Positions 2,902 to 26,399 of a DNA stretch of 64,000 bases are shown here, piece after piece. The notes beneath the pieces were generated by a model. That model searched no databases. It saw only the letters and a program-made list of their open reading frames with translations, and had not been told where the DNA came from. Made by a program: the position numbers and the translations under genes. Origin of the DNA: a virus; IMG/VR virus record IMGVR_UViG_3300032293_001706, positions 64,001 through 128,000 of that record, one strand, 5' to 3'. Each line of letters starts with the position of its first letter. Positions within the stretch are counted from its first letter, which is position 1.

Positions 2902-3601
2902 ATTCTAAAGTATCAAATTTGTTTATTAAATCTACCAAAACCCTAACATCTTGTTGACAGTATTCAGATATCTTATCCAAAATTCCCGCTTCCCAATAAG
3001 AAGAATGTACAATATTACCTGTTACTTCTCCTCCTTTTGAACTTTCACATCCCATTGCAACAGATATAAGTTCAAGTTGTGCGATAGAAAATTGGTTAAT
3101 ACCATTCCAAAATTCTTTTGTATCCAAAGCTTTAACCTCCCAAGGTTTTGTTTCAGAAGTTGGTAATATTCTTGCTGGTTGAAATCCGTTGATTACCATT
3201 CTTTTAAATAACATTGGAATGTCAAATCCTTTAATATTGTGTCCACACAATACGAAATCTAATTTTTGTATCTTATTTAGAAGTTTGATAACATTTCTCA
3301 ACAATTCCTTTTCATCGTCCATTGCATATGTTTGAGTTTGCATTTCACCTTTTTGATTAATAAAAGCAAAACTAGCCACAACAATTTTTGCAAATTCAGG
3401 AATCAATCCTGACCTTGAGATATAAACCTCTTCGGGTGTTTTTGACGAATCTTCAGGAAATCTTTTATGAAACCAATCTTGGTATTTCATAAAAACATTA
3501 TACATTTCTGGTTTATTTTTTTCAAGTTCAGATAATGTTGGAAATTCTCCAACGGTTTCTAAATCAAAAAATAGGAGTTTGGTTTTTGGATATGGTAGCA
3601 T
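2891..3601 (-). CDS. Stand-alone DEDDy 3'-5' exonuclease (PolB-exonuclease-like)
   Basis: ExoI FFDLET, ExoII GHNIKGFDIP, ExoIII YCQQDV. Confidence 0.85.
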   Translation of the reverse strand: MLPYPKTKLLFFDLETVGEFPTLSELEKNKPEMYNVFMKYQDWFHKRFPEDSSKTPEEVYISRSGLIPEFAKIVVASFAFINQKGEMQTQTYAMDDEKELLRNVIKLLNKIQKLDFVLCGHNIKGFDIPMLFKRMVINGFQPARILPTSETKPWEVKALDTKEFWNGINQFSIAQLELISVAMGCESSKGGEVTGNIVHSSYWEAGILDKISEYCQQDVRVLVDLINKFDTLEYVQ

Positions 3602-4848
3602 TATTTTAGTGTTTTATATAATTCAGCTCTATGTTTTGTTACAATATTTAAATCGTATTTGTCTTTTACAGTTTCGTATAATCTTTGACCTAAGTCGTAT
3701 GCCATATTTGGGTTTTGAATAAGTTTCTTCATTGCCTTTGCCCAATCAGAATGATTCCTTTTCTCATCAACCAAAATAGCATTACCATTAATAAAATTAC
3801 CATTTTCTAAGCAATGTTTCAAGTCCAAAGTATAAGGACCCAAATTCGATGCAATAATTGCCTTTTTATAAAACCCCGCTTCAATCACTTTCAGTTGTGA
3901 TTTTACTCTGTTAAAAATGTGGTTTACAATAGGAGCCAATGAAACATCAAACTTTGCATAGTTTTTAGCATATCCATTAATTGGTTCGGTCCATACCCTA
4001 TTATAGAATTCTTCACCGTTCCAAGATTCCTGTCTATACTTCAATAAATAATTTTTATATTCAGGTGAAGTGAATTCATAATTTTTGGTAAAAATTTCTT
4101 CGTATCTCGCCCAAACCGTTTCTTCGGGTCTAATAGGTCTTTGTTTTTCTTCACCTGTTTGTGCATTAATTTCAGTCATTGTTCCTCTAACATCAAAACC
4201 ACATAAGAAAAATTGCGACTTATTTCTTAAATCATTACCAAGTACATCTGTACATCCTTTTAAAAGGTTTAAGTCATGCAAATGTGATGAACCACCAAGC
4301 CAACCAAATCTCATTTTATCAGATGGTTCGGTTTTTGCATTAAATTGTGGTTCTTTCGGGTTAATTGCGTTAGGTAATACAAAAACATTTTTATTGTATT
4401 TTTTAATTTCATCAGCAAAAATCGGTGTTGTGGTTGTTACATATTTTGCAACTTTAAGATTTGCGATAATTTTTTCGTGGATTTTATGTTGAACAACCAA
4501 ATGGTGAACAGGGTGTTCTTTGGTTGGCAACCAATAATCATCCAAATCCATAACCGTTATAATTCCTAAACTATTTAAAATCTGAATCATTGTATTTGAT
4601 TTTTCATAATCAGGATTCAAACTTCTATGGAAGCAGACCATATCATATTTTGTCCAAAATGATATGTCATCCATATTTGGATTATAATCAATATCTACAT
4701 GGAAATCATCAGGATATTGATTTTGTAGCATTATGTGGGGGTCTAAAGAACGAAATTTTCCTTAACCTACCCCTGTACGGTCAGATGCGAGAACAAGTAT
4801 TCGAATCTTTTGACGACCATTCAGGGGCGAATCATTTTTTTGTGTCAT
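3601..4848 (-). CDS. GT-B (GT4-like) glycosyltransferase with an in-frame TAA at 4762-4764 (pseudogene or recoded)
   Basis: The ORF-track frame (ATG 4731) extends upstream to ATG 4848 as MTQKNDSPLNGRQKIRILVLASDRTGVG*GKFRSLDPHIMLQ. C-terminal GT4 motifs: FGWLGGSSH, FDVSLAP, KSQLKVIEAG, IIASNLGPY. Confidence 0.75.
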
Positions 4849-4953
4849 TTTTATTAAAAAAATATAATTTATGAAATTTGATTTTAAATCAAATTACCGT
4901 AAAAATATAATATCTAAGATTATTTAAGTCAATCTGTTTTTTCTATTATTAAT

Positions 4954-5460
4954 ATATTTATCTAAAATGAAAGAACTAATCAGAAAAATATTAAAAGAAG
5001 AAACCGAAGAAGTTCTTGAACTTCCATCAATCAAATATTTTCTTAATGATTGGAAATGGGTTATTAAATTTGTTAAAAGTGAAGGAAATCCATTATTTTC
5101 AATTCAAGAAAGTCTTATTTTAAGACACAATAGTCTAAAAACTCTTGGAAGATTATATTCAGTTGAAGGTAATTTGGATTTATATGGATGTAAAAACCTA
5201 ACATCTCTTGGAAAACTATCACATGTTGGGGAATGGTTGGATTTAAGAGGAACAAATATAACATCTCTTGGAAATTTAACACATGTCGGTGGAGGTTTGG
5301 ATTTATATGAATGTAAAAGCTTAACATCTCTTGGAAGACTACAACATGTTGGTGGTCTTTTGGATTTAAGAGATACACCAATGGCTAATGAATATTCCGA
5401 AGAAGAAATACGAAAAATGGTTAATGTTGAAGGAAATATTTATCTATAATGAAAGAACTA
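4954..5460 (+). repeat. 25-bp direct repeat pair flanking the LRR-like gene
   Basis: ATATTTATCTAAAATGAAAGAACTA at 4954-4978 and ATATTTATCTATAATGAAAGAACTA at 5436-5460; one mismatch. Confidence 0.9.
4967..5449 (+). CDS. LRR-like tandem-repeat protein with MKELIRKILKEE leader
   Basis: Four alternating 21/20-aa units of type TSLGxLxxVGGxLDL; DNA repeat AACATCTCTTGGAA at 5200, 5260 and 5323. Confidence 0.8.
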   Translation: MKELIRKILKEETEEVLELPSIKYFLNDWKWVIKFVKSEGNPLFSIQESLILRHNSLKTLGRLYSVEGNLDLYGCKNLTSLGKLSHVGEWLDLRGTNITSLGNLTHVGGGLDLYECKSLTSLGRLQHVGGLLDLRDTPMANEYSEEEIRKMVNVEGNIYL

Positions 5461-6042
5461 TTGTACTTTCTTTATTTTTGTCACCTTACCTTCGAAAATA
5501 TGCTTTCCTACCTTTAATTGAAGGGTTTCGTTAGATTTTGATTCACCCTCAACAACTAATCCTGCTTTAGATAGTTCTTCTTTAATTGTATCTCTAACAG
5601 TGTCTCTAATAAGATTTCTTATTGAATTTAAGTCTATACTTTCAGTTATATTCTTTTGTGTTTGAGTATTAGGTTGTTTCTTTTCAACCCCCATTAATTT
5701 CTGAGCCCCCTCAATAACTTCTTCTGATAGAAAACTAGTATTTAAACCTGGTACTGTTGGTTTTTCAATAGGGTTTTCAATCATTAATTTTTTTATTTCA
5801 TCAGGTAATTTTGAATTTAAAATTCTATCTTGTGTAATTGGAACATTTTCATTTCTTACAACCGTTGAAGATTGTTCACCCAAAAATTCTTGGGGTATGT
5901 TATATGTTGCGGGTAAAGGATTATATGATTCTACTTGTGGTACGGTATTAGTCATAGGTAAAGAATTCGCAGACCTAGGTAGTTCATTATGTTTATCCAT
6001 TATTTTTTTCGAAATTGCTAATTTTGACATTAAATCATCCAT
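5458..6042 (-). CDS. Hypothetical protein
   Basis: 194-aa ORF, last of a tightly packed five-gene minus-strand run. Confidence 0.7.
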   Translation of the reverse strand: MDDLMSKLAISKKIMDKHNELPRSANSLPMTNTVPQVESYNPLPATYNIPQEFLGEQSSTVVRNENVPITQDRILNSKLPDEIKKLMIENPIEKPTVPGLNTSFLSEEVIEGAQKLMGVEKKQPNTQTQKNITESIDLNSIRNLIRDTVRDTIKEELSKAGLVVEGESKSNETLQLKVGKHIFEGKVTKIKKVQ

Positions 6043-6054
6043 ATTATTAATTAT

Positions 6055-6435
6055 TTATAATTTTGCATTTATGTAAACAACAGACATTAATTTATCTCCT
6101 GTTGTATTATAATTTGACGGTAATTCATTAAATTTTTCACCTGTTCTCTGAAACGTAAAAGTTTTATCTATTCTAAATAATCTCCAACCCGGTAAAACTT
6201 TTTTACCGATTGCAACACTATGTGACGCTCCTTCAGGTTCATATGCCCTTAAAACTAAATTTCCTTTTAATGAACGTCCCAAACAAACAGGATAAACAGT
6301 TCTATATCCTTTACCACCTGGTTCGTCACCATCGTATGTTATAATAATAACATCACGATTTTTGATTGCCCTTTGCAAATCATTAAATGATACGGCTTCA
6401 GTAATAAAACTTTTTATAGTTTCAAGTAACTTCAT
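6055..6435 (-). CDS. Stand-alone WYL-domain protein
   Basis: IIITYD...YRTVYPVCLG...VLRAY...GWRLFRIDK matches the WYL pattern (RxFRxD); no HTH domain present. Confidence 0.7.
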   Translation of the reverse strand: MKLLETIKSFITEAVSFNDLQRAIKNRDVIIITYDGDEPGGKGYRTVYPVCLGRSLKGNLVLRAYEPEGASHSVAIGKKVLPGWRLFRIDKTFTFQRTGEKFNELPSNYNTTGDKLMSVVYINAKL

Positions 6436-6737
6436 TATCCAGGAATTTGATATGGGTTTTTTCTGTTGTATTTATTTATTTTGATGTTTTCTTTTCTGTC
6501 TATAATGTCATCTTTTGTTCCTGCATTTTCATTACCTACATCAAGAAAAATACCAGTTCCTCTACCTAAAGAATCACCATCGGCAATAGCATCTTTATTT
6601 GTGGTTCCATAAAGATTATCGACATTATAATCGTTTCTTGCAAATAATTTTTGTCTTTGTTGTTCGGCATAAAAACTCATTTGGTTTTTATCTGCTTCTG
6701 GTTGAGAAAAATCTAATTTATCATTTTGTGTACTCAT
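6435..6737 (-). CDS. Hypothetical protein
   Basis: 100-aa ORF with overlapping start/stop junctions to both neighbours. Confidence 0.65.
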   Translation of the reverse strand: MSTQNDKLDFSQPEADKNQMSFYAEQQRQKLFARNDYNVDNLYGTTNKDAIADGDSLGRGTGIFLDVGNENAGTKDDIIDRKENIKINKYNRKNPYQIPG

Positions 6738-7201
6738 AGTATTAATTTTTTAAACCAATTATTTATTTGTTCGATTTCTTCAGAAATACCTGAAATTCTT
6801 TGACTTATTTTCTTATGTGAATGTGATGGTCTAAAATCAGTTCTTAAATCATCATTCTTAGTATGTGTTGATATAAATTGATTATCCATAGCAGCATCGC
6901 TTTTTATTTGTTTTGGTAATCTTTTTCCTTCTCTTGAACTTTTAAGTTGATGTTCAACCCATCCTTTGAATGTTCCACCACCTAAGATATGATATTCAGG
7001 ACTTGATGTATTTCCGTTACTATCGAACCAGTTTTTTATTCTTTTTAATTGTTGATATGTTGCATAACCTGTTTCGGACAACTCTTTAGCTCTTTTAACA
7101 TTCTCGACACTTTGGTTGGAGTATTTAGAAATTGAATTTCTTAAAATTTCCAAAATGTGTGGAGGAATATGATAATGGTGTCCGTATAGGTCCTTATTCA
7201 C
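6734..7201 (-). CDS. Hypothetical protein
   Basis: 155-aa ORF overlapping both neighbours in the operon. Confidence 0.65.
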   Translation of the reverse strand: MNKDLYGHHYHIPPHILEILRNSISKYSNQSVENVKRAKELSETGYATYQQLKRIKNWFDSNGNTSSPEYHILGGGTFKGWVEHQLKSSREGKRLPKQIKSDAAMDNQFISTHTKNDDLRTDFRPSHSHKKISQRISGISEEIEQINNWFKKLIL

Positions 7202-7898
7202 TTTTCAACATTTTTATTAATTCGTTTATGGTTATGCTTTCAGTTTCCGCTTGTTTTTTCAAAAACTTAATATTCTTTTTTAAAATTTTAGATACAGATG
7301 TTTCTTTTTTTGTAATATCCCCATCTTTCTTTGATTTTTTAACCAATATATCTTCAGTTACCTCATTTTCTTTTTCAAACAGTCTTTGCATTTTTTTCTT
7401 ACCTGGAATTTTTCCCATTTCTTTGGCTCTTTCCTCGGCATTAGATTCAATTTCTTTTTTTTCTGATTTAGATTTAGTATCTTCAATACCTAATAATTCA
7501 GATAAATAATCGACAGTTTCATCATAGGTCATAAAATCTGTTTCTTCTTCCCTACCAAAAACTTTACTCATATCTTCTTCATAAAAATGTCTTCTATACC
7601 CCATTCTAAAAATATCATAAACATTTCTTGCCATTGATATGGTTTGGTCTGTGGTTTTCTTTGGTGTAACATGTGGGTCTAATATCGGAATTTTTGAACT
7701 TAAAAAAGTTCCGTCTCTATCAACCAATTCATCTATTTCACCTTCAGATTTTTCAGATTTTCTTTTTATAACATCCAAATAACTTTTATGGTTTCTACAC
7801 GGCATGTATCTATCATTATACATTTTATGTGTTCCAATACAACCAAGTTCTTTGGCTTTTTGGACTGCTTCTTCCTTAGTTTTATATTCGTGTATCAT
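7194..7898 (-). CDS. Hypothetical protein with N-terminal C-H-C-H motif
   Basis: AKELGCIGTHKMYNDRYMPCRNH; TATTTAT motif upstream (ATAAATA at 7918-7924). Confidence 0.65.
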   Translation of the reverse strand: MIHEYKTKEEAVQKAKELGCIGTHKMYNDRYMPCRNHKSYLDVIKRKSEKSEGEIDELVDRDGTFLSSKIPILDPHVTPKKTTDQTISMARNVYDIFRMGYRRHFYEEDMSKVFGREEETDFMTYDETVDYLSELLGIEDTKSKSEKKEIESNAEERAKEMGKIPGKKKMQRLFEKENEVTEDILVKKSKKDGDITKKETSVSKILKKNIKFLKKQAETESITINELIKMLKSE

Positions 7899-7949
7899 TT
7901 ATAGAATTTATTTTATTATAAATACAATAATGTTTGTATTTATTTATGA

Positions 7950-10490
7950 ATGGCAACACAGAATATCAATAACTTTTATTTTAGAAGATTCGATGCATTT
8001 ACAGACGACAGTGAATATACTGATTTCTTTCTAGTTGCAGACGAAAAACAATACGATGAAGAAGTAATTTTTTCTAATCAATTAATTGCATATGAAAACG
8101 GACAAAGATTACCAATCAACATAGAATTGTTCAATACTGGTTCATCACAAAATATTTTATTATCATATGGTGAATATAATACAGGAAACACATTAGTTTC
8201 TTTAAACAATTACAATGATAATACATTAAATGATACTTGTTATAGTGCATTTACAGGTATTTGTGATGTAGGTTTAACAGCTATTGATAATGGACTTGTT
8301 ACGGATATGACAGGAAATACTTTGTATTATTCTATGGGTATCCGAGATGATTACAAGTTTGACCCATTACATTACGATAGAAGATTTAAAATGAGACCTG
8401 TAACAGGATACACACAAAGTCCTAATACAAGATTTTCAGGTATTTCGTCCCAAATATTGTATAATATTGTGACAAAAACAGGCTCAACAATTGGTCAATA
8501 TTATGACTTATATGGTGGATACCTACAAGGGTTTTATCAATTATATGGGTATGATTATAAGGTTTTACCTGAAAGAACAAATAAGGGTTGGACGGTTGAA
8601 ATGTTACTAAAACCTAGAGTAACCGATGAATTTACACCTGGTGAAAATCAAACTTATTTAAATAACATATATCCTGATAACGCTGGTACTTTCTTTTTCA
8701 TGGGTACAAGAGCGGAAAATAAATTTTGGCATTACGCTTCAGGTACAAATTCAGGGAATACAGGATATACAAGAGTAACAGAAAGTTTATCAAACGGATG
8801 TATCGAAACTTGTTCTTGTAGTAATACAGCGGTAACAAATTCAAATTGTTATACAACATATCCACTTTCGGCAATTACAATACAAAAAAATTGTTCAACG
8901 GACACCGTAATACAAACAGAAAAAAATACACAATTAGACACATATTCAAATGCACTTTCATTTAGATTAGAAGGTGACCCAACCAATCCAAAATTATGTG
9001 TAAAATACCTTTTATGGACGGGTAATTGCGAAACAACAGGAAGTTGTACAAATACCGGAGTAACTTATGAAACAGGTTATACAATTACTGAAATTTGTTC
9101 AACTGACGGAATTTATGATGTTTGTAGAACAGGAAATACTGGTATTGACAATTGGGTAATGATTAATGTCGTATTCAGTAGATATCAAACATTAGAAGAT
9201 TGTGATTTAATTAATTTAGGTGGTTTAGGTGGGATGAGAGAATTAGTTTACACGGCATCCGCAGTTGATAATACGGTGTCGTTAATTAAACCCCCTAGTA
9301 CACATCCTGATAACACATACCCCGAAAAAGTTGAAATAATTAGTTTGCAACAAAAGTGGTTAGAAGAAAGAAACTATAGATTGGGTGATTTAATTTTTTA
9401 TGTAAACGGAAAACGTTTTATGAAAATTGAAAACTTTGAAGAAATTATTCCAAGAGAATTGGATGAAGTTAAAGAAAAACAAGTAGGAGTTCCGTTTAAT
9501 ATTTCTTGGGGTGGTGGTAGTTTCGGTCTAAGAGAATCATTAACATTTAGTGGTTGTTCAGGAGCAACAGGACCATATATTCAAGACCCTGAAGTAATGT
9601 CTGAAAATACTTTAAGTGGTACTAGTCTATCAGGTCTATCAACTCCAATATTAATAGAACAAAATTTTGGTGGTACATTTATGGGTGCAATATCAGAATT
9701 TAGAATGTATATTGAACCTTTAGTTTCATCACAAATACAACATAACTACAGAATACTAAAAGATAAATACCAATTCTTTGATGTTGATTGTCCAACTTGT
9801 CCGACACCAACTCCGACACCAACACCTTCTGTTACCCCTAATCTATCACCAACTCCGACACCATCGGTTACTCCAACGGCAACAATTACATCGACACCAA
9901 CACCGACACCAAGCGAATTGCCGAAGTTGGCTTATCTATTCATAGAACCACAAACAGGTTCAACATTAATTGGTCAATACTTATACGACTTGGATAATAC
10001 AAGATTGTTCTTTGGATTTACAAACGCATCAATGCCTGATACAACAGATGCGACACAATTCAATGTGGATATGAACCAATATGTTTCTTATTCTGGTTGG
10101 TCAAATGGAGTATTCCCCGCAGTTCAAAGTGAAACTGTACCACAAACATCAGGAGGTGTTGATAGTTTTGGAAACGCAATACAAGCATACAACTTCAAAA
10201 CACACGAAGTTTCTGCTCATACGATTAATAGTCCTGCGTGGTTTACTTGGATTATTGCAACAGGTTTCACAAACGGATTACAACAATTGCAGATTGATTA
10301 TAATGTCAATGGAAATCCGAATGTATTTACAACAGTATTTACCGAATCAACAATTAGAAGTCAAACATTTACTTATACAGGTTCAACAATACCTCCTGGA
10401 ACATATAGAGTTTACACCACATTTAGTGACTTTGCATTCTATATCACAGATAATGATAATATATACTTTAAAGGTAATGTTTGTGGGTAA
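7950..10490 (+). CDS. Large virion structural protein (LamG-like signature, Cys-rich segment, Pro-Thr linker)
   Basis: FMGAISEFRMYIEPL LamG-type signature, CIETCSCSN-type Cys clusters, PTPTPTPS repeat; TATTTAT at 7937-7943. Confidence 0.6.
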   Translation: MATQNINNFYFRRFDAFTDDSEYTDFFLVADEKQYDEEVIFSNQLIAYENGQRLPINIELFNTGSSQNILLSYGEYNTGNTLVSLNNYNDNTLNDTCYSAFTGICDVGLTAIDNGLVTDMTGNTLYYSMGIRDDYKFDPLHYDRRFKMRPVTGYTQSPNTRFSGISSQILYNIVTKTGSTIGQYYDLYGGYLQGFYQLYGYDYKVLPERTNKGWTVEMLLKPRVTDEFTPGENQTYLNNIYPDNAGTFFFMGTRAENKFWHYASGTNSGNTGYTRVTESLSNGCIETCSCSNTAVTNSNCYTTYPLSAITIQKNCSTDTVIQTEKNTQLDTYSNALSFRLEGDPTNPKLCVKYLLWTGNCETTGSCTNTGVTYETGYTITEICSTDGIYDVCRTGNTGIDNWVMINVVFSRYQTLEDCDLINLGGLGGMRELVYTASAVDNTVSLIKPPSTHPDNTYPEKVEIISLQQKWLEERNYRLGDLIFYVNGKRFMKIENFEEIIPRELDEVKEKQVGVPFNISWGGGSFGLRESLTFSGCSGATGPYIQDPEVMSENTLSGTSLSGLSTPILIEQNFGGTFMGAISEFRMYIEPLVSSQIQHNYRILKDKYQFFDVDCPTCPTPTPTPTPSVTPNLSPTPTPSVTPTATITSTPTPTPSELPKLAYLFIEPQTGSTLIGQYLYDLDNTRLFFGFTNASMPDTTDATQFNVDMNQYVSYSGWSNGVFPAVQSETVPQTSGGVDSFGNAIQAYNFKTHEVSAHTINSPAWFTWIIATGFTNGLQQLQIDYNVNGNPNVFTTVFTESTIRSQTFTYTGSTIPPGTYRVYTTFSDFAFYITDNDNIYFKGNVCG

Positions 10491-24500: not shown

Positions 24501-24749
24501 AGATTGTTGTTTGAACAAAATGACGACAAGGTAAGACAAGACTTCTTGGATTCTGTGAACCCAATCTTGGATTCAATTAGAAGAGACAGAGGTTTAATTG
24601 ACTTCAGAGTTGTAGTAACAAATACACCTGAAGATTTAGATAGAAACCAAATGACTGGTAAGATTTATCTAAAACCAACCAAAGCTCTTGAATTCATTGA
24701 TATTGAGTTCTTAATTACACCATCAGGTGCATCATTTGAGAATATCTAA
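21582..24749 (+). CDS. Tail sheath protein (gp18-like)
   Basis: FVSPGVYTSERD and GETLKGPAFEP at the N-terminus; PWFASAG...RG, INPI, WGNKT, RINVRRL at the C-terminus. Confidence 0.95.
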   Translation: MATSNKVFVSPGVYTSERDLSFVAQSVGVTTLGIVGETLKGPAFEPIFITSFDEFQAVFGGTLPEKFVNTQIPKYEAAYIAKSYLQQSNQLFVTRVLGLSGYDAGPSWSITSVANVNGSTVIQNATPSSVVVTFTGSTGSTSVSFGSFASTVFANDVNTTQSLTDGTTTTIKNQLDSFVNSVMNTNSTSATTAYVFGTLGDTVYNTLTGAGYTGLTNVYNVPSLKNSLTSYSSRDNDAWYYSQFNISSGNNYSGYSFSVAVTSLSGTAFGTAGQFSGSVTISASTLLGTAYTDWNNVVLATLRSRGIAPYDNSTNPDYQVTGTTDVIIDLSGVYSGTSKTPFGSFAISGVTYEGNTFNFKTSLDSTDPNYISKVFGLSNFGKDRNDVPLFVEESFSNMLTYGYQMGYVKSIGSTLKGLPSAQDDNGTNTSIGWYLEQYQTPETPYLVSELRGNTVYDLFKFISISDGNAANAEIKISILNISFTNGTFDVGVRDFNDTDQNPVFIEKFTNCSMNPSNNNFIGVKIGTSDGEYVQRSKFIMVELNPEAPIDALPCGFRGYPLRTYNGVTSAFPIYKTQYETAGDNTFYPPFGSQQVSSGDKVNRTYLGISNTVGIDQEYFNYKGKQNPTNIATATSSNPWNFISKGYHLDSGATVVTIPSTYSTSGTSAFEVGDASFSSEPTDSTSPYYRLNARKFTLVPAGGFDGWDIYREYRTNGDNFIIGGSGFLKGFAPTSQFPTATGWGAFKKITVDGNSNDWANTDYYAYLKGQKTFANPEAVNINIFVTPGIDFVNNSNLVEDAIDMIENDRADSLYITTCPDYNMFVSNTTSSENLIYPQEAVDNLETTGIDSNYTATYYPWVLTRDTVNNTQIYLPPTAEVCRNLALTDNIAFPWFASAGYTRGIVNAVKARKKLTQEDRDTLYQGHINPIATFSDVGTVIWGNKTTQIAESALDRINVRRLLLQARKLISAVAVRLLFEQNDDKVRQDFLDSVNPILDSIRRDRGLIDFRVVVTNTPEDLDRNQMTGKIYLKPTKALEFIDIEFLITPSGASFENI

Positions 24750-24760
24750 TAAACATTATT

Positions 24761-24790
24761 ATGGGGTGGGGAAAAAATAACCCACCCCAT
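24761..24790 (+). terminator. Hairpin after the sheath gene
   Basis: Perfect 10-bp inverted repeat ATGGGGTGGG / CCCACCCCAT. Confidence 0.7.
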
Positions 24791-24813
24791 ATATTTATAA
24801 TTAAAATACAACT

Positions 24814-24957
24814 ATGAAATTCACAAAAAAAGTATTGTTTGAAAATATGGAAGTTAAGACCAATGGTTTAAAAACTTATTCTGAAAAACCTCAGTCTATA
24901 ATTGTTAGTGAATCACAATTAGAAAGAGTAATTCAAAAAATTTTAAATAAAAAATGA
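24814..24957 (+). CDS. Small protein (47 aa, absent from the ORF track)
   Basis: MKFTKKVLFENMEVKTNGLKTYSEKPQSIIVSESQLERVIQKILNKK; TATTTAT at 24792-24798; ATGA overlap with the next gene. Confidence 0.6.
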   Translation: MKFTKKVLFENMEVKTNGLKTYSEKPQSIIVSESQLERVIQKILNKK

Positions 24958-25805
24958 ATTATAAAAAACTAATTAGACGTACCCTACATAAATTGTCTGA
25001 AGGATTTGACCCTAGTGGTCTTCCTGACCATAAATACTATGCTTTTGATTGGGATGATAACGTAATGAACATGCCAACAAAAATCATAGTATTAGATGAA
25101 GATGGTAATGAAGTTGGTATTTCTACTGATGATTTTACCGAACATAGACATCAGATAGGTAAAGAACCTTTTGTATATAATGGTAAAACTATTATATCAT
25201 ACGCCGAAAGACCATTTAGAAATTTCAGAGATGAAGGAGAAGCTCAATTCTTGGAAGATATCATGTCAGCAGGATTCGGACCTTCTTGGAACGACTTTGT
25301 TGAATGTATAAATGGGGGTTCAATTTTTGCAATTATTACAGCACGTGGACACAACCCTGAAATCCTTAAAGAAGCGGTATATAAACTCATTAAAAACAAT
25401 ATTGGTGGGTTAGATGAGGAAAAGGTTGTTGAGTCGTTAAAAATGTATCATGAGTTAACTGATAAAGAAATTAAAGATGATGATACAATGATTAGAGAAT
25501 ATTTGGACATGTGTAGGTTTCATCCTGTTTCATTTGGTACAGGTGCGGAAGCAAATCCTGAAGAAGGAAAAGTTAATGCATTAAGAGAATTTATAGGTTA
25601 TGTAAAACAAGTTTCAAGAGAAATTGGTGGAAGAACCTTATTTAAAAATGACGTTACAAATAATTTTATCATCCCTAAAATTGGTTTTTCAGATGATGAT
25701 GAAAAAAATATTGAAAAAATTAAAGATTTCTTAAATAAAGAATTTGGCCTAGAAGCTCCAGTACAGACATATTTAACTAAATCAAATATTAAAAGAAAAT
25801 ATTAA
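24954..25805 (+). CDS. HAD-superfamily phosphatase-like protein
   Basis: Motif I AFDWDDN, motif II IITARG, motif IV GFSDDD. Confidence 0.65.
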   Translation: MNYKKLIRRTLHKLSEGFDPSGLPDHKYYAFDWDDNVMNMPTKIIVLDEDGNEVGISTDDFTEHRHQIGKEPFVYNGKTIISYAERPFRNFRDEGEAQFLEDIMSAGFGPSWNDFVECINGGSIFAIITARGHNPEILKEAVYKLIKNNIGGLDEEKVVESLKMYHELTDKEIKDDDTMIREYLDMCRFHPVSFGTGAEANPEEGKVNALREFIGYVKQVSREIGGRTLFKNDVTNNFIIPKIGFSDDDEKNIEKIKDFLNKEFGLEAPVQTYLTKSNIKRKY

Positions 25806-25910
25806 TAATAATTAAAACCAGATTACCTAGGCAATTATATATGAAAAAAACTAAATAGTAAATATTTATATAGAAAATAAACTAAAGAAAACAAAATAAT
25901 GAAATAAAAT

Positions 25911-26399
25911 ATGGCAGACTTATTAATGAAAATGCCCGACCCATACGAACCGAAACAGAAACATAGGTTTATAATGACATTTCCATCCTCTTTGGGTATT
26001 AATTCTTGGTATGTAGAATCAACAAAGAGACCAAAAGTAACAATTAACAAAGCTGATATACCATTTTTGAATACAAAAACTTATGTTGCAACAAATTTTG
26101 AATGGGACACAATTGGAGTTACATTTAGGGACCCAATTGGACCATCAGCGGCACAGGCGTTAATGGAGTGGGTCAGATTACATGCTGAATCAGTTACAGG
26201 GAGAATGGGTTACTCATCAGGGTATAAAAAGGACATTACACTTGAAATGCTTGACCCAACAGGAGTTGCGGTGGAAAAATGGATATTACAAGGTTGTTTC
26301 CTAACTGATGTAGATTTCAAAGAATTATCATATGGTGAAGGTGGAATACAAACAATTTCTTGTACGTTGCGTCCAGACCGTTGTATATTGGTTTATTGA
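25911..26399 (+). CDS. Tail tube protein (gp19-like)
   Basis: HRFIMTF...WDTIGVTFRDP...YKKDITLEMLDPTG...WILQGCF. Confidence 0.9.
   Translation: MADLLMKMPDPYEPKQKHRFIMTFPSSLGINSWYVESTKRPKVTINKADIPFLNTKTYVATNFEWDTIGVTFRDPIGPSAAQALMEWVRLHAESVTGRMGYSSGYKKDITLEMLDPTGVAVEKWILQGCFLTDVDFKELSYGEGGIQTISCTLRPDRCILVY

Follow-up and report, generated by a model that had tools for sequence, protein, structure and literature searches.

How does a small accessory gene come to lie between two copies of its own start, each with a promoter-like box and an ATG, when the second copy is spelled by the gene's last codons? We addressed this question in a 64,000-nt stretch of viral DNA, hereafter the window, which comprises bases 64001-128000 of a 190.5-kb IMG/VR record with a completeness estimate of 63%. 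The genome encodes a gp23-type capsid protein (PF07068, 210 bits), a gp21-type prohead protease (PF03420, 74.7 bits) and a large terminase, and therefore belongs to a distant T4-like jumbo phage. The capsid gene (G000:C1:35160-36965) encodes I-N-E followed by A-A at approximately residue 61, which fits a putative T4-type propeptide cleavage site. Comparison of positions 3000-8000 of the window with the annotated phage collection (blastn) gave zero matches.

The left copy of the repeat, ATATTTATCTAAAATGAAAGAACTA, lies on the plus strand at 4954-4978 and is composed of a TATTTAT box (4955-4961), a 5-nt spacer and the ATG (4967) that opens the MKEL codons. The right copy, ATATTTATCTATAATGAAAGAACTA (5436-5460, plus strand), has the same box at 5437-5443 and consists of N-I-Y-L codons, a TAA and an overlapping ATG with an MKEL stump. 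The copies lie 482 bp apart and are 24/25 identical, with one base different. A search tolerating up to three mismatches returned only these two matches within the window and none in 100 shuffles, which confirms the direct repeat described in an earlier note on this DNA. The same note had derived the right copy from the gene's own codons and, indeed, the open reading frame runs from 4967 to 5449 and ends in N-I-Y-L-TAA. The 25-mer contains the last four codons of one unit with its stop, and then the four codons that open the next unit; the final A of the TAA doubles as the first base of the second ATG-AAA-GAA-CTA. Homology between the window unit and an array elsewhere in the genome starts exactly at 4954 and ends at 5460 (blastn), where the resemblance to the gene's own start also stops and where the stop codon (CTA, that is, TAG on the minus strand) of a conserved, convergent 194-aa gene (5458..6042, minus strand) lies; this stop codon is also the last codon of the stump. 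The next unit is cut off after four codons, as had been described, in its homology but not in its reading frame: the dangling ATG opens a frame of 22 codons. No hairpin was found within the 25-mer itself, the left copy folding no better than shuffles (z -0.4), and there is no Shine-Dalgarno sequence in it; half of the right copy is coding. Separately, the stop plus stump, ATAATGAAAGAAC (window 5445-5474), can pair with the last codons of the 194-aa gene, GTACTTTCTTTAT; this pairing, followed by a T-run and marginal by its z of -2.1, may be a candidate for a shared terminator.

The gene between the repeats (4967..5449) is the sole plus-strand gene in a minus-strand run and codes for a 160-aa LRR- or receptor-L-like solenoid protein. 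Four internal repeats of 60/63 nt (5129..5377, plus strand) code for LRR turns; the number of turns varies among paralogs and alleles, and protein length ranges from 160 to 312 aa. The four 20/21-aa repeats place the window protein among tandem LRR-type solenoids, while it has no match in Pfam, NCBIfam or PHROGs and falls below the curated LRR profile threshold. AlphaFold (81-sequence alignment, mean pLDDT 93.9) models the protein as a short, helically capped solenoid with a regular strand ladder, in which residues 1-10 are of low confidence and the C-terminal I-Y-L is confidently modelled as a buried terminal strand. The best fold matches, weak at E ~0.1 or weaker, are all LRR or receptor-L-domain proteins, including insulin-receptor L1. 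The nearest protein-atlas clusters contain virus-only small LRR/Recep_L proteins, and precomputed annotations assign PF01030 or PF12799 to some homologs. The internal repeats, the solenoid model and the weak fold matches uphold the earlier designation of the gene as LRR-like. In a library of 1.8 billion proteins, the family numbers 588 representatives at E ≤ 1e-10. The small neighbour genes of the LRR gene match no family in Pfam, NCBIfam or PHROGs.

We compared the site with its counterparts in related phages. The 194-aa gene and the glycosyltransferase gene (3601..4848, minus strand) are neighbours in 79 of the 79 related viral contigs carrying both, where the latter directly follows the former, and an LRR gene lies between them in none. 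The two flanking genes are 130-360 nt apart in these relatives, two contigs having other inserts, as against 729 nt in the window, and no trace of the 5' module was found at the 194-aa/glycosyltransferase loci of the 79 relatives. A 301-307-aa endonuclease-like gene lies inside the interval in L064:4577-7047 and L087:4707-5630; its sequence motifs make it a putative homing-endonuclease-like gene. The L064 insert also codes for a 483-aa secreted protein whose C-terminus, read by eye without a profile, is a putative Bacteroidota type-9-secretion sorting tail. As the two larger gaps hold other inserts, the interval repeatedly takes up insertions and can be regarded as a hotspot.

A 724-nt ENA contig (L179) from a near-identical strain provides another allele. 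It shares the right junction of the window, with ~155 nt identical from the 25-mer into the 194-aa gene, and yet its LRR gene is a different paralog, of 180 aa with 66% protein and ~83-86% DNA identity to the window's, and in front of it stands the end of another copy (..VEGDIYLE-TGA, overlapping the ATG). Along the alignment, identity steps from ~81% upstream to 100% from the first base of the right 25-mer (5436) outward, which places the crossover at the repeat. A homolog on an NCBI contig (P0003) is a single copy flanked by minus-strand genes at the window's own spacings of 118 nt and 9 nt, and has one LRR turn more than the window gene. An exact-pattern search of metagenome and viral contigs, aimed at the end of the 194-aa gene, revealed no more close-strain alleles. 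The comparison of orthologous loci suggested by the earlier note hence finds zero copies in 79/79 relatives, one in the window and at least two in L179. Since the site carries none, one or several copies across related phages, the family has been gained, lost and swapped at the joint, as the earlier note had proposed, and the breakpoint of L179 falls at the 25-mer.

The same genome also carries two paralogs in tandem (G000:C1:24738-26077; 24738-26100 with the stump), directly 5' of the terminase gene. The first ends in ..VEGDIYL-TAA and overlaps the ATG of the second at the joint GATATTTATTTATAATG (GATATTTATTTATAATGAAAGAACTA); the second ends in ..VEGNIYL-TAA and is followed by a stump of 8 codons, ATGAAAGAACTGGTTAAAAAAATATAA (MKELVKKI*). 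Searching for the joint and for paralogs ending in IYL-stop, another check that had been proposed, retrieved both in this genome and in relatives. Four units abut in L011 and three in L012, each array being closed by a 20-nt stump and a terminator, and the array of L022 has at least 10 units. L021 and L178 are two ends of one 16-kb scaffold with arrays at both, and the L021 joint is identical to that of the window. More stumps were found behind arrays or single genes in L180 and L183-L185, and the stump of L187 copies its own gene's variant start, ATGAAATACCTA. A narrower family alignment used as the query gave 12 related loci, and contigs from public runs contain array-type junctions in other samples, with short-sided joints of 85% likeness that we gave no weight as evidence for empty sites or circles. 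Five related records searched for family members contained none; as these records are fragments, this indicates only a patchy distribution. The predicted head-to-tail arrays thus exist, with two units and a stump in this genome; in related phages the number of units runs from 2 to at least 10.

A stump of a next unit, read in the window as the trace of a contracted array, also closes several independent arrays and single genes elsewhere. Across independent loci, stumps measure 12, 20, 21 and 27 nt, and at 12-27 nt they are too short for random deletion to explain. In several, the end falls on the A-run of the 5' module beside a terminator, which suggests deletion through microhomology. In L178:6510-7597, two successive array units have the same in-frame TAA at codon 39 (..YVEE*GNPLF); these units may be pseudogenes or may reflect a repeat-assembly effect or another cause.

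Identity between paralogs is patchy. A block of 113/113 identical nt is common to the two array paralogs, and the window copy shares 88/90 nt with array copy B at its 3' end, while elsewhere the two are only 65-89% identical. Against the nearest relatives, the new DNA in the window extends from ~4816 to 5457 and includes ~11 N-terminal codons of the glycosyltransferase gene, which relatives lack and which seem to have arrived with the insert. The N-terminal part of the glycosyltransferase (4729-4848) also has an in-frame TAA (..RTGVG*GKFRS..). A tRNA or small RNA in 4731-4850 was considered and rejected, as ARAGORN found none and this DNA codes for the N-terminal portion of the glycosyltransferase. 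Altogether, the comparisons show that units have recently been exchanged by homologous recombination, which probably used the unit ends as its preferred homology.

The upstream part of the insert (4849..4953, plus strand) offers a clue to how the window copy arrived. Two AAAATATAAT boxes (4859 and 4902) flank a hairpin at 4868-4903, with 10-bp arms at 4875-4884 and 4886-4895 (z -4.2), in the divergent intergenic region between the glycosyltransferase and LRR genes. Positions 4853-4886 resemble the DNA just 3' of the stump of the terminase (TerL)-side array (local score 37; the highest of 500 shuffles was 35), and AAAAATATAAT has only nine occurrences in the genome, three of them in the left part of the insert or in the flank of the array stump. 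Since the left end of the insert is like the flank of an array stump, the insert joined end to end would read like an array end, a hint that the window copy may have been inserted as one turn of a circular or concatemeric intermediate.

We further investigated whether the box at the joint could be a promoter. TATTTAT is the most enriched 7-mer within 60 nt upstream of genes (58 of the 193 genes in a crude gene call, ~11-fold), and 36% of its copies fall in the non-coding 5% of the genome. Counted from its first base, the box most often stands 11-12 nt before the ATG (22 genes), the distances tailing off to 38 nt; at the 25-mer joint it stands exactly 12 nt before. The box stands before 55% of genes with a 21-60-nt spacer and 47% of the first genes of strand blocks, and before 5 of 74 abutting genes (7%); among these 74, only the second gene of the LRR array has it 11-13 nt from its ATG. 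A general translation signal was ruled out on the grounds that TATTTAT is nearly absent before abutting genes. The start-proximal box seen by the earlier note is accordingly a genome-wide element typical of transcription-unit starts, and its distribution fits a predicted -10-like promoter element rather than a translation signal. As the box ends 5 nt before the ATG, a leaderless or nearly leaderless RNA would be implied.

At the joint, the 12-nt spacing occurs in two codon registers, xxT-ATT-TAT-CTA-TAATG here and ATA-TAT-TTA-TAG-ATT-ATG in L022, and its retention by two clades in two registers argues that spacing matters. In the L022 array (L022:3238-5751), a 33-35-nt spacer precedes some units and contains a Bacteroidota-type TAnnTTTG box, TATCTTTG, whose end lies 5 nt from the ATG, and other units bear the TATTTAT joint; with both box types in one array, the family may use two promoter classes. 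A literature search on TATTTAT as a phage promoter returned nothing relevant. The earlier note knew of no case in which a coding end doubles as a promoter; this needs qualification, as internal late promoters inside upstream coding sequence have been reported for phage AR9 (PMC5312081). We put the probability that the box at the joint works as a promoter a little over one half.

Taken together, we propose that the 25-bp repeat is probably the unit boundary of a shuffled, self-expressed, virus-specific LRR family that forms arrays in T4-like freshwater phages. A unit would start with TATTTAT 12 nt before its ATG, continue through a conserved 5' module (MKELI.KILKEETEE) and LRR turns that vary in number, and end in a conserved C-terminus (..VEGxIYL) whose codons, together with the stop, supply the next unit with its box and ATG. 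Units would be added, removed and exchanged by general homologous recombination, both at the boundary and among paralogs, the boundary being favored because the unit ends are the best-conserved DNA, and a short stump of a next unit would always be left at the array end. The window would then hold a one-unit array inserted, with ~105 bp of upstream DNA, into the 194-aa/glycosyltransferase gene pair. The box would serve as a promoter of late type from which leaderless mRNAs start, each unit thus driving its own expression. A 482-bp circle may be an intermediate of the exchange, in the manner of the PeSL mini-circles of T4-type phages.

The repeat could instead be a passive scar of tandem paralog duplication followed by deletion and have no regulatory role. 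The array genes would then be co-transcribed and translationally coupled through their TAATG or ATGA overlaps, and the box at the joint would follow from the AT-rich I-Y-L and stop codons. The joints of the L011/L012 clade are consistent with this, as they have no TATTTAT, keep ATGA overlaps and resemble a translationally coupled operon. I-Y-L moreover ends copies that no next gene abuts and that are followed by the 33-35-nt spacer with its host-type TAnnTTTG box, and the C-terminus is confidently modelled as part of the fold; because I-Y-L is structural and also ends such non-abutted copies, the box may be a by-product of AT-rich codons. The box nevertheless sits at the genome's modal 12 nt in two different codon registers, and the LRR joint is unique among the 74 abutting genes in having it at 11-13 nt. 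A passive scar is also compatible with the recombination part of our proposal, the part that the comparisons show, and as a full account of the repeat we consider it rather improbable.

Two other explanations concern the cassette itself, and we consider both very unlikely. Collapse or chimeric joining of a repetitive array during assembly might have produced a single copy with a repeat, and contigs of this family do often end within arrays (as at both ends of the L021/L178 scaffold), while unitigs of run X1 break inside the LRR gene. Independent X1 unitigs nonetheless cover 4433-4995, 5071-5290 and 5430-5817 with zero mismatches and at a depth of 13.8-15.8, the same as the unique flanks; the right junction recurs in the independent ENA contig L179, and the NCBI contig with homolog P0003 has the same spacings. 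The 25-mer could alternatively be a site at which a dedicated recombinase cuts out and inserts units, as in an integron-type cassette, which would suit one gene bounded by direct repeats and the likeness of 4853-4886 to the post-stump DNA of the other array, read as one turn of a circle or concatemer. This is countered by the eight neighbouring genes scanned, in which no integrase or recombinase domain was found (Pfam), by a 25-mer without a hairpin of its own, by stump lengths that vary (12 to 27 nt), unlike cuts at a fixed site, and by identity patches between paralogs that fit general homologous recombination.

With a shuffled unit boundary as the preferred reading, the closest known system is the shuffling mediated by promoter-early stem-loop (PeSL) elements in T4-type phages, and the joint is a compact variant of it. 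In PeSL cassettes, short repeats containing a promoter and an ATG flank ORFans, crossovers have been reported between the -10 element and the ATG, and mini-circles have been demonstrated by inverse PCR (Arbiol et al. 2010, PMC2839356; Comeau et al. 2014, PMC4122927). Here, likewise, each 25-mer (4954 and 5436) holds TATTTAT-N5-ATG, with predicted promoter activity, and the two form direct repeats around an accessory gene; differences between close relatives, both indels and replacements, are bounded by repeats, here in L179 versus the window; and the present phage is also T4-like in its gp23- and gp21-type genes. In contrast, the composite PeSL motif of stem-loop, sigma-70 early promoter, Shine-Dalgarno and ATG is absent from the 25-mer, although a stem-loop with a TATAAT-like box lies 50-100 nt upstream, at 4868-4911. 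The box here is TATTTAT and not a sigma-70 early promoter, half of the 25-mer is coding sequence of the preceding gene, and the units belong to one paralog family where PeSLs flank unrelated ORFans. Because its composition departs from the PeSL definition, the LRR cassette works like a PeSL cassette and is not a member of that class.

Integron cassettes are similar in having single-gene units bounded by repeats, in their arrays and in a proposed circular intermediate, and differ in their integrase and attC-type hairpin, for which we found no counterpart here (the former among the eight neighbours scanned), and in a common promoter where the LRR units each have a promoter-like box. Tandem arrays of host-interaction genes also expand and contract by recombination in large DNA viruses, as in the amplification of poxvirus K3L and in the MGF families of ASFV. 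The LRR arrays resemble these gene accordions in changing size by recombination between copies, whereas their units abut without a spacer, share a boundary with a promoter-like box and also move to a new locus.

The 5' module suggests a further comparison. T4 internal proteins are diverse, fast-evolving and small, and share only a short capsid targeting propeptide (PMC9026906, PMC3012670). In a similar manner, a 13-aa N-terminal module, MKDLIKKILKEET, is common here to LRR and non-LRR bodies: in L017:3127-4474 (also L013-L020), three abutting genes share their first 38 nt and 13 aa, two having non-LRR bodies and one an LRR body, so that the module is shared by unrelated proteins. MKELIRKILKE further contains L-K-E (residues 9-11), which fits the (L/I)-x-E rule of gp21-type proteases, one of which this genome encodes. 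The module is, unlike a propeptide, internal in some members (L021, array gene A), and the resemblance is one of motif only. We consider it unlikely, though conceivable, that the family corresponds, in Flavobacterium phages, to the internal proteins of T4. The module (MK[ED]LI..ILKE) would then be a capsid-targeting propeptide cut by the gp21-type protease, the bodies would be injected, and the joint would have evolved for excision and reinsertion. As part of that same tentative reading, the LRR bodies would form a variable head-packed set binding host targets or defences, and the codons of the joint would spell a late promoter and ATG such that an excised unit, possibly as a 482-bp circle, stays expressed.

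This locus provides a natural example of accessory-gene shuffling in large phage genomes, outside the enterobacterial T4 phages, for which empty, one-unit and several-unit alleles and a crossover point are all visible in public data. It indicates that a promoter-like box, a stop, a start and recombination homology can be compressed into a unit boundary of 25 bases. If the box is truly a promoter, the family could be used as a test bed for leaderless late transcription in Bacteroidota phages. And if the N-terminal module truly directs proteins to the head, the arrays would amount to an inventory of host-binding proteins that the phage injects.
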